DNA of 64,000 nt from Escherichia phage NHEP11 (PQ511149.1); one strand, 5' to 3'; counted from the first letter of the stretch, positions 43,526-44,939 are shown. Notes: generated by a model from the sequence alone, not told the origin. Numbers and translations: made by a program.

Positions 43526-43855
43526 TTATACTCTAGGCTTTTGAGCTTGTTTGGTATTGGATTCCCATGCGGCTTTGGTAATTTTGTTAGCGGCATAACC
43601 AAAGGCATTAGATAGAACACCTTTAGAGTTGAATACATCCAATCCAATAAGTACACCAGCTGTGTTAAATTTAGGAGAAAAGTACGCATTAGTTTTAGAA
43701 AGAGCTTTTTTCAATTCAGGGTCTTGAACCAAGCCATCAAAAACGCCTTTACTATTTACTTTATATGTTACTTTGGGATTTTTACCTTCTTCGATAGCAG
43801 CTTTCTGTTCTGCAGATAATGTAACTTCAGTGATAAACTCTTGATATGTTTTCAT
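43526..43855 (-). CDS. internal-protein-like (capsid-targeting leader)
   Basis: 109 aa; N-terminus MKTYQEFITE matches the T4 internal-protein capsid-targeting sequence. Confidence 0.65.
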   Translation of the reverse strand: MKTYQEFITEVTLSAEQKAAIEEGKNPKVTYKVNSKGVFDGLVQDPELKKALSKTNAYFSPKFNTAGVLIGLDVFNSKGVLSNAFGYAANKITKAAWESNTKQAQKPRV

Positions 43856-43918
43856 TTTTGTTTACTTGTTTGTTTTGATAGAGTAATTATACCATATTAA
43901 TACTTAAGCGTAAACAAT

Positions 43919-44179
43919 TTAAGCTTTACCGCCAGAAATAATTCCGAAGTTGTTAAAATCGTATCCAATATCGTCAACATCTACTTTAGGACTTGCTACA
44001 GCATAAGCAATTTCACTACGTTTTGCATAGGTGTTGATTTCTTTACCATCGCCACCTAAGAAAGAATACCCATTACGTTTTAATGAGCCAAAGTCTTCCG
44101 CATCACCAATGAAAGCTTTAACTTTAAATTTAGGACCTTTAGCATCTGCTTCAGTGATAAATTCTTGATACATTTTCAT
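43919..44179 (-). CDS. internal-protein-like (capsid-targeting leader)
   Basis: 86 aa; N-terminus MKMYQEFITEA. Confidence 0.65.
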   Translation of the reverse strand: MKMYQEFITEADAKGPKFKVKAFIGDAEDFGSLKRNGYSFLGGDGKEINTYAKRSEIAYAVASPKVDVDDIGYDFNNFGIISGGKA

Positions 44180-44185
44180 TTTTCC

Positions 44186-44599
44186 TTAGTAAATTGATTT
44201 ACCGTAGTATTTGTACCAAGTCGGACGTTGAGCAATTTTTTCATCTAAGCGAGCTTGACTTATCGCAATGGACGCTTCGGACGGGACATAATTATTACGA
44301 AATTCGGCAGGGATGTCGGAAATATCCTGGACAGTCGTGTCCTTGATTTTGAAACCACGTTTCAAACATTCAGCGATTAGCTCGATTTGACGTAAACGTA
44401 AAAATTCGAGTTTGTCGTAAAAGAATGTTACGTGACCTGTGCCTAAGATAAATGTTGGAGAGATTTTAAAATCCTTTACACGTTTACCGTTTTGAACATG
44501 TTTACGGACTGCACCAAATACGCGCGGTAATTCACGATACTCAGCCATAAGATGTTGGTCGGTCAGTTCAGAAACAAGTGTTAAATTGATACGAGTCAT
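44186..44599 (-). CDS. denV: endonuclease V (pyrimidine-dimer DNA glycosylase) DenV
   Basis: From internal Met: [35 protein letters not shown]... matches T4 DenV as recalled. Confidence 0.92.
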
Positions 44600-44657
44600 A
44601 ATTTCCTCCAAGTAGTTGATGAATGTATAGTATCAAAGTCCTTGGAGGAAGTAAACA

Positions 44658-44939
44658 CTATTTTTCTGAAGCGCCTGAAATATATTTTTCAAGACGTTGT
44701 TTCATTAGCGAGCCGTTCTTAGCGATTTCTTCTGGTTTATCGCACATACGCAACAAGGCTTCAAGCTTAACGATATCGCTGGTACGTTCAAATTTGCGAG
44801 TATCTATCTTACTAGCAAGTTCAGAAATACGTGCTAATAGACTTTCAGCTTCAACCAAAGCTGCACCTAGCTTAGTTGCAAATGTGTCAGTAGCTTCGTT
44901 AAGAATAGATTCTGATAAAAATTCACTATATGTTTTCAT
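44658..44939 (-). CDS. internal-protein-like (capsid-targeting leader)
   Basis: From the second Met: [11 protein letters not shown]; ATG overlaps the lysozyme stop (ATGA). Confidence 0.6.

Follow-up and report, generated by a model that had tools for sequence, protein, structure and literature searches.

The stretch of 64,000 nucleotides from Escherichia phage NHEP11 (PQ511149.1) analyzed here, referred to as the window, carries six open reading frames (ORFs) that start with nearly the same short leader and continue into mutually unrelated mature parts. We assign the six genes to the leader-tagged, head-packaged internal protein (Ip) class of the T-even phages with a probability of about 0.8. 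One of them, F (55864-56151), was identified by its sequence as ipI; the five other leader-tagged genes are designated A (43526-43855), B (43919-44179), C (44658-44939), D (52502-53128) and E (55529-55792). An earlier note on this DNA had listed the six ORFs and their near-invariant leader, and all of them were indeed present on the minus strand, co-directional with their neighbours. The note had further treated the whole span 43526-44939 as one gene family. A, B and C do lie inside this span, but it also contains denV (44186-44611), which is not a member.

The leader proved to be specific for these genes. Searching the six-frame translation of the window with the pattern M[KY][TM][YF]xEF[IL] returned the six N-termini and no other occurrence. 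Similarly, when 690 ATG-started ORFs were scored with a position matrix derived from 48 distinct leaders found in other phages, the six obtained 25.8-37.0 bits (37.0 for A; 25.8 for D, the weakest), and the next-best ORF reached 0.7 (mean −24, standard deviation 9). In all-against-all BLASTP comparisons of the six proteins and T4 IpI, IpII and IpIII, similarity was confined to residues 1-10 through 1-19, with alignments to T4 IpII and IpIII reaching residue 26 at most. After removal of the first 10 residues, BLASTP found no related pair among the six proteins, in agreement with the claim of the earlier note that the mature parts differ.

This leader matches the experimentally defined capsid-targeting sequence of T4. 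Residues 1-10 of T4 IpIII are enough for packaging; targeting depends on its residues 4 and 7 and processing on 8 and 10, and the prohead protease gp21 cuts after Glu in L/I-x-E (PMC9026906). The leader peptide by itself loads foreign proteins into T4 heads (PMC3012670; PMC9026906). In the window, residue 4 is Tyr or Phe and residue 7 is Phe in all six proteins, and each of the six contains a gp21 motif, and hence a predicted cleavage site, within the first 10-19 residues. By this motif the sites are ITE10 in both A and B, LSE10 and LNE15 in C, LAE10 and ITE16 in D, IAE10 and LTE18 in E, and LTE19 in F, with the second site of C, D and E at residue 15, 16 and 18, respectively. The proposal that the leader acts as a packaging and cleavage signal is thus supported, whereas the consensus ending in Glu10 that had been drawn up for it describes only five of the six proteins, as F has Pro at this position in place of the (I/L)-x-E at residues 8-10. 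The predicted mature masses are 7.8-10.7 kDa, and 21 kDa for D; the mature proteins have isoelectric points (pI) of 6.4 (B), 8.1 (C) and 9.0-9.8 (A, D, E and F). The closest match to the window regions, Escherichia phage NHEP10, encodes the gp21 protease (Peptidase_S77, 2.8e-107), the gp22 T4 scaffold protein and gp67.

Exact runs of 10-14 nucleotides are common to the leaders at the DNA level. Nevertheless, the codon for Thr3 differs among them (ACA, ACT, ACG, ACC), and fixed residues together with varying third codon positions argue that selection acts on the peptide to maintain the leader. To place the six genes in a wider context, loci were collected from IMG/VR (33 around 57B and 80 around denV), 69 T4-like loci of which were used for a census. 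They contained 120 leader-tagged ORFs in 26 sequence clusters, all 120 on the gene strand, and several clusters, including that of B, were found at both ip loci. This census agrees with the published view that Ip repertoires are highly diverse and that the targeting sequence alone is conserved.

F had been listed in the earlier note as one generic member of the family. The comparisons identify it as IpI itself, in the form of the RB69 allele of the inhibitor of the CT596-type GmrSD enzyme. The 95-residue protein matched Pfam IPI_T4 (PF11634) with 1.4e-50 and 169.6 bits (cutoff 25) and PDB entry 2JUB with 6e-42; over these 95 residues it shares 88% identity with T4 IpI. Its mature part of 76 residues (IPI*) is identical to RB69 IpI and differs from T4 IPI* in 4 residues, a four-position difference between the RB69 and T4 proteins that has been reported (PMC6024577). 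The leader MKTYKEFISP lacks the first cleavage site, and the propeptide ends LTE19/A (slashes mark predicted cuts here and below); T4 IpI likewise keeps ITE19/A. The RB69-type IPI* is reported to protect against CT596 GmrSD, whereas the UTI89 enzyme still restricts RB69 (PMC6024577). As F is identical to RB69 IpI, it would be expected to confer the same protection against CT596 GmrSD. A Pfam search of A-E gave nothing above threshold and no match to IPI_T4.

In T4, ipII/ipIII occupy the denV-e locus and ipI the locus between 57B and trna.4; in the window, the former holds A-C, which flank denV and e, and the latter holds E and F. A encodes 109 residues starting MKTYQEFITE/V (predicted mature part 99 residues, pI 9.7) and belongs to phrog_3966 (6e-32), a family with no function assigned in PHROGs. 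It is preceded by a T4-early-type promoter, GTTTACG-N17-TATAAT with TG, ending CTATCAAA (43874-43915, minus strand); the element has the sequence frame of a promoter early stem-loop (PeSL) but lacks a stable stem (folding z −0.04). B encodes 86 residues starting MKMYQEFITE/A (mature part 76 residues), its start codon lies 6 nucleotides past the denV stop, and it belongs to phrog_2667, annotated as internal head protein (3e-20). In a protein collection clustered at 90% identity, B was found in a cluster in which the representative and many of the members are DenV endonuclease V (137 residues), which looks like an artefact of adjacent genes.

C encodes 93 residues, the ten-residue leader being followed by /SILNE/A. 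Its start codon overlaps the stop codon of the lysozyme gene e (ATGA), by which C is translationally coupled to e. The protein belongs to phrog_3499, annotated as internal head protein (1e-46), and falls into the same 90% cluster as RB69ORF127c, which carries this annotation in RB69. About half of the 494 phage records matching the mature part of C are below 60% identity, among them Yersinia and Shigella T4-like phages in which the gene is called hypothetical, so that the C family extends far beyond the RB69 group. A pattern match to a late promoter, AATAAATA with one mismatch (45449-45456, minus strand), lies approximately 25 nucleotides upstream of e, and e, C, denV and B could be transcribed late from it.

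The denV region is polymorphic among relatives, 20 of the 25 closest genomes carrying extra sequence there. In Escherichia phage GADS24, an additional leader-tagged gene of 104 residues is located between B and A (882-1196 of locus L117, minus strand); it begins MKTYKEFIAESANQRVEGG and is absent from the window. In the alignment, the boundary of this insertion or deletion is AAAATGAAAAC, which comprises the ribosome-binding spacer and the first codons of the leader, indicating that the conserved leader DNA itself is a crossover point. A relationship between A and the GADS24 cassette was considered and not adopted: both fall into phrog_3966, and past the leader they resemble each other only weakly (33% across 76 columns; E 2e-5 with the leader counted in).

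The second locus likewise has a cassette structure. E encodes 87 residues starting MKTYKEFIAE/SQSSTLTE/N (mature part approximately 69 residues, pI 9.4), shares the extended leader ending STLTE with IpI, and belongs to phrog_13302 (2e-36), again with no function assigned in PHROGs. The gene is flanked by 48-nucleotide repeats that are 96% identical (55815-55862 and 55481-55528). PeSLs were detected between E and the trna.4-like gene (55485-55526; stem −15.4 kcal/mol, z −4.9), upstream of E (55819-55860; stem z −5.6), and between 57B and ipI (56174-56215; stem z −3.7), all on the minus strand, giving cassette spacings of 334 and 355 bp. In a metagenomic relative with a 100% identical 57B (L004), 57B and trna.4 are separated by a single PeSL, and an ip gene is lacking there; the left flank of this empty site matches the window upstream of ipI and the right flank upstream of trna.4. 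T4 carries one cassette, ipI, between equivalent elements, one in each intergenic gap. With none in the metagenomic relative, one in T4 and two in the window, the same site holds zero, one or two ip cassettes. The metagenomic locus (regions 3957-4023 and 5875-6255) also lacks a 171-residue ORF present in the window at 54103-54618. The adjacency and the STLTE leader suggested E as a possible diverged paralogue of IpI; the mature parts have no sequence similarity.

Altogether, five elements of the form GTTTAC-N-CTATCAAA (42 nucleotides) were found on the gene strand, compared to 0.02 expected. Four of them precede A, E, F and the trna.4-like gene, and another lies at 48937. All include a promoter of the T4 early type, TTTACA/G-N17-TATAGT/TATAAT with TG before the −10 region, and four of the five form a strong stem-loop over the −10 region (z −3.7 to −5.9). 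These elements are PeSLs, which at the 57B/trna.4 locus bound the ip cassettes, and A, E and F each possess an early-type promoter of their own. The fifth element (48937-48978, minus strand), in the e.x region, has a strong stem (z −5.9) and no adjoining leader-tagged gene. In T4-type phages, PeSL cassettes have been shown to mediate the shuffling of modules and the formation of mini-circles (Arbiol 2010, PMC2839356), and for the PST/T4 pair the promoter consensus is TTTACW-N17-TAYWAT, with TTTACA-17-TATAGT and TTTACG-17-TATAAT as instances (Comeau 2014, PMC4122927). The idea that a PeSL is a general feature of ip genes was not upheld: a strict PeSL within 110 nucleotides was present for 11 of 120 leader-tagged ORFs and 21 of 874 background ORFs, an approximately fourfold enrichment but no rule.

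D differs from the other genes in several respects. It encodes 208 residues starting MYTFNEFLAE/TEVITE/A (mature pI 9.8), belongs to phrog_2280 (1e-57; function unassigned in PHROGs), and is located at a third site, downstream of an rnaC homologue and beside tRNA genes. Most of its homologues start MKTYNEFLNES, and in the 11 closer ones Glu16 is invariant and Ala17 nearly so, which points to the second site, ITE/A. The family is found, among others, in Dhakavirus, Karamvirus and Marfavirus and in phages of Klebsiella, Enterobacter, Serratia and Yersinia; the most distant homologues have about 30% identity, and the position beside the tRNA cluster is kept. Among the six genes, D alone has a canonical T4 late promoter, TATAAATA (53164-53171, minus strand), 35 nucleotides upstream of its ATG. 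The promoter abuts a terminator-like hairpin with U-run that follows the rnaC homologue (53172-53203, minus strand; −18.3 kcal/mol, z −3.0), and the Karamvirus fGh-Ecl01 has the same terminator and TATAAATA before its D homologue. An AlphaFold2 model from an 11-sequence alignment, with a mean predicted local distance difference test score (pLDDT) of 72.8, consists of a three-helix N-terminal domain, a disordered Pro/Lys-rich linker and a conserved, confidently modelled helical C-terminal domain. Taken together, D is probably a genuine internal head protein, and less obviously an arms-race gene than the other five; being more widely conserved, fixed in position and equipped with its own late promoter, it may have a general role inside the head. 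In the metagenomic relative with the empty 57B site, the D homologue ends at 126 residues within the Pro/Lys linker, and the same short form makes up a 5-member protein cluster (P0073). The rnaC homologue itself (53215-53330, minus strand; T4 species 1 RNA) is near-identical over the aligned 3′ part of approximately 88 nucleotides, including the tRNA-like end, and an Rfam search of it gave no family match.

The distribution of the mature parts was determined by tblastn in 50,697 phage records. They were found in 90 (A, all annotated as hypothetical), 215 (B), 494 (C), 130 (D), 35 (E) and 288 (F) records, compared to 699-795 records matching the flanking regions; all six are therefore accessory genes. 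All six proteins already have counterparts of 97-100% identity, either in sequenced phages or in publicly available assemblies. Deeper homologue collections were small: only near-identical clusters were obtained for A, 12 representatives among 1.84 billion proteins for D, and one 14-member cluster among 5.8 billion proteins for E, which is too shallow for profiles in all three cases.

On this basis we propose that the first 10-19 residues serve as capsid-targeting sequence, through which the protein would attach to the scaffolding core that gp22 forms in the prohead. The gp21 protease would then cut after Glu in L/I-x-E and release the mature protein inside the head, to be injected with the DNA at the next infection. 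A-E would thus represent unrelated mature domains on one common tag, and their packaging, cleavage, injection and anti-defence function are inferred. In this view the repertoire is diversified by cassette exchange, the ip genes being bounded by PeSLs at 57B/trna.4 and one cassette boundary lying in the first codons of the leader at denV.

Anti-restriction functions, suggested in the earlier note for the whole family, are established for Ip1-3: Ip1 inhibits the CT596 GmrSD, Ip2 and Ip3 each inhibit a different GmrSD-family type IV enzyme, and the three have only the leader in common (Silas 2025, PMC12373910). For F the suggestion holds through its identity with IpI; for A-E it is carried over by analogy. 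By this analogy, A, B, C and E would most likely be pre-made, injected inhibitors of host DNA-targeting defences, and we regard a specific anti-restriction role of A-E as about an even bet. Part of the reason to look further afield comes from ip4-10 of other T-even phages, which gave no reproducible hits against 15 GmrSD groups (PMC12373910; the numbering is not matched to A-E), so that targets outside the GmrSD family are possible. In addition, the DNA of RB69-type phages contains arabinosyl-hydroxymethylcytosine (arabinosyl-hmC) rather than glucosyl-hmC (PMC6024577). Judged from its relatives, the phage studied here would carry the same modification, and the relevant host enzymes may differ accordingly. 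A, D and E moreover have no annotated relatives. A-E might therefore be injected effectors that act not on type IV restriction but on another defence system, on some other function in host take-over, or on competing phages. Against this stand all three Ips with a known target, each of which inhibits a GmrSD-family enzyme (PMC12373910), and no positive evidence for another target was obtained in this analysis; we would put this explanation well short of even odds. The narrower idea that at least one of A-E is an injected effector outside the GmrSD family, which in view of the arabinosyl-hmC DNA could inhibit a different modification-dependent nuclease or a glycosylase, is likewise offered only tentatively. 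The same caution applies to the separate idea that the D family, which has its leader, late promoter and fixed position on the tRNA/rnaC side in Mosigvirus, Dhakavirus, Karamvirus and Marfavirus, is a broadly conserved, unrecognised internal head protein with a role unlike that of the variable Ips.

Alternatively, the packaged proteins could act mainly inside the head, in balancing DNA charge, in DNA organisation or, as reported for IpIII, in prohead assembly, and not in anti-defence. The basic mature parts of A, D, E and F would fit such a role, as would the finding that head assembly in IpIII mutants proceeds about half as fast as normal (PMC9026906), and D, with its presence in several genera, fixed position, late promoter and Lys/Pro-rich linker, resembles a housekeeping head component. 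However, T4 without all three Ips is viable (PMC9026906), every cassette is missing from a large part of the T-even records that share its flanks, mutually unrelated mature parts are hard to fit to one common structural role, and every Ip of known function is a nuclease inhibitor (PMC12373910), which makes a purely structural function unlikely. Far less probable still is that the common start goes back to recent gene duplication, or to an element acting at the nucleotide level (a ribosome-binding context or recombination site, for instance), some members and especially D having no packaging function. The exact nucleotide runs common to the leaders, the cassette boundary within leader DNA, which implies that the leader acts as recombination substrate, and the divergent leader of D could be read in this way. 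Yet the mature parts share no similarity, and synonymous positions vary while the residues stay fixed; in other phages the same peptide begins proteins of 26 unrelated families, always on the coding strand and at the N-terminus, it loads foreign proteins into T4 heads on its own (PMC3012670; PMC9026906), and the homologues of D bear the canonical leader.

Several observations weigh against the assignment of the six genes to the head-packaged Ip class or against the functions proposed with it. A, D and E are called hypothetical in every GenBank record inspected and carry no Ip annotation in PHROGs, and a literature search found no virion proteomics report for A-E and nothing of use on the virion proteins of RB69-type phages. 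The genes for the gp21 protease and the scaffold lie outside the 64-kb window. B, with its pI of 6.4, is not basic, unlike the classic Ips; the leader of D is divergent (Tyr2, Phe4), and D is found at neither of the two classic ip loci. Structure modelling of D and E yielded no functional clue: a Foldseek search of the D model against the PDB returned generic helical hairpins only (E >1), and the single-sequence AlphaFold2 model of E (pLDDT 50.5) gave meaningless Foldseek hits, with 2JUB not among them. The empty site at 57B comes from a metagenome assembly. Finally, the null result for ip4-10 implies that the analogy with Ip1-3 may not cover every Ip.

The genomic surroundings are those of a T-even phage. 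NHEP10 matches the window with 98.7% identity at 43300-45500 and 99.4% at 52000-56700, both ip-bearing regions match several hundred T-even phage genomes, and the classification of the close relatives places the window in Mosigvirus (RB69 group). The T4 gene order is kept, with vs.8-like, A, B, denV, C, e and nudE at 42.8-45.9 kb and tRNA-Arg/Met, trna.4-like, E, F, 57B, 57A and gene 1 at 53.9-57.7 kb. Between A and the vs.8-like gene lies a 136-nucleotide spacer (43390-43525, minus strand) in which fragments of the N-terminal extension of T4 Vs.8 (QPVIRSS, AVMG, MCHGMAQT) are found in three different frames. It is either a decayed Vs.8 N-terminus or a conserved non-coding element read as coding in the T4 annotation; an Rfam search of the spacer gave no match, and a 42-residue ORF on the opposite strand is annotated in this region of NHEP10. 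A 33-residue ORF (56148-56249, minus strand), annotated as a gene in NHEP10, covers the PeSL upstream of ipI, overlaps both neighbours and is probably not a gene.

As the leader, the diversity of the Ips and the logic of anti-restriction have already been published, the present analysis adds little as a discovery. Three modest points are new. A, D and E can be counted among the Ips despite their hypothetical labels, in the case of D together with a whole family whose membership is not annotated in the databases consulted. The D family is widely conserved and has a late promoter of its own. Finally, the two loci show clearly how cassettes are gained or lost, at PeSL repeats as well as at the leader itself. 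Ips travel with the phage DNA as ready-made counter-defence proteins, and since 2025 a distinct type IV restriction enzyme has been known as the target of each of the three T4 Ips. The five uncharacterised Ips A-E thus offer a short candidate list for new inhibitor-nuclease pairs, of relevance to host range and phage therapy.

Compared to known systems, the loading of proteins into the head for delivery has parallels outside the T-even phages. The inner-body proteins of phiKZ and SPN3US likewise enter the prohead, where a protease resembling gp21 trims them after Glu, and are delivered together with the DNA, but they differ in targeting signals, protein families and phage lineages and provide an analogy only. 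The same is true for the Dar proteins of P1, head-internal, protease-processed ejection proteins with different signals, families and lineage. With the PeSL cassettes of T4-type phages, the window shares promoters fitting TTTACW-N17-TAYWAT, the stem-loop, the flanked variable ORFs and a relative that retains a single element at the empty site; it is unlike them in that its stems overlap the −10 region, the element before A is stemless, and the crossover at the denV locus lies in leader coding sequence and not in a PeSL.

T4 IpII inhibits GmrSD-ECOR21/BrxU, and IpIII inhibits the GmrS1/GmrSD2 pair of ECOR17 (PMC12373910). The window genes resemble IpII and IpIII in the leader, in the location of A, B and C by denV and e, in being mostly basic, and in size, with A, B, C and E about as large as Ip2 and D about as large as Ip3. 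The order, in contrast, is C-denV-B-A in the window and ipIII-ipII-denV in T4, and no Ip2 or Ip3 orthologue was detected in the window, as BLASTP of the six proteins against T4 IpII and IpIII with the leader removed gave zero hits; solved structures of Ip2 and Ip3 were looked for and none was found. The ip genes of T-even phages are reportedly polymorphic, as attributed to Repoila et al. in 1994, and the genes of the window follow this pattern: they are unrelated small ORFs with a conserved leader that vary between close phages at two loci, from which they depart in the third site of D by rnaC and the tRNA genes and in the absence of an Ip annotation for A, D and E. IpI of T4 and RB69, finally, shares with F the 19-residue propeptide ending (L/I)TE/A and the position downstream of 57B, and differs from it in nothing of substance.

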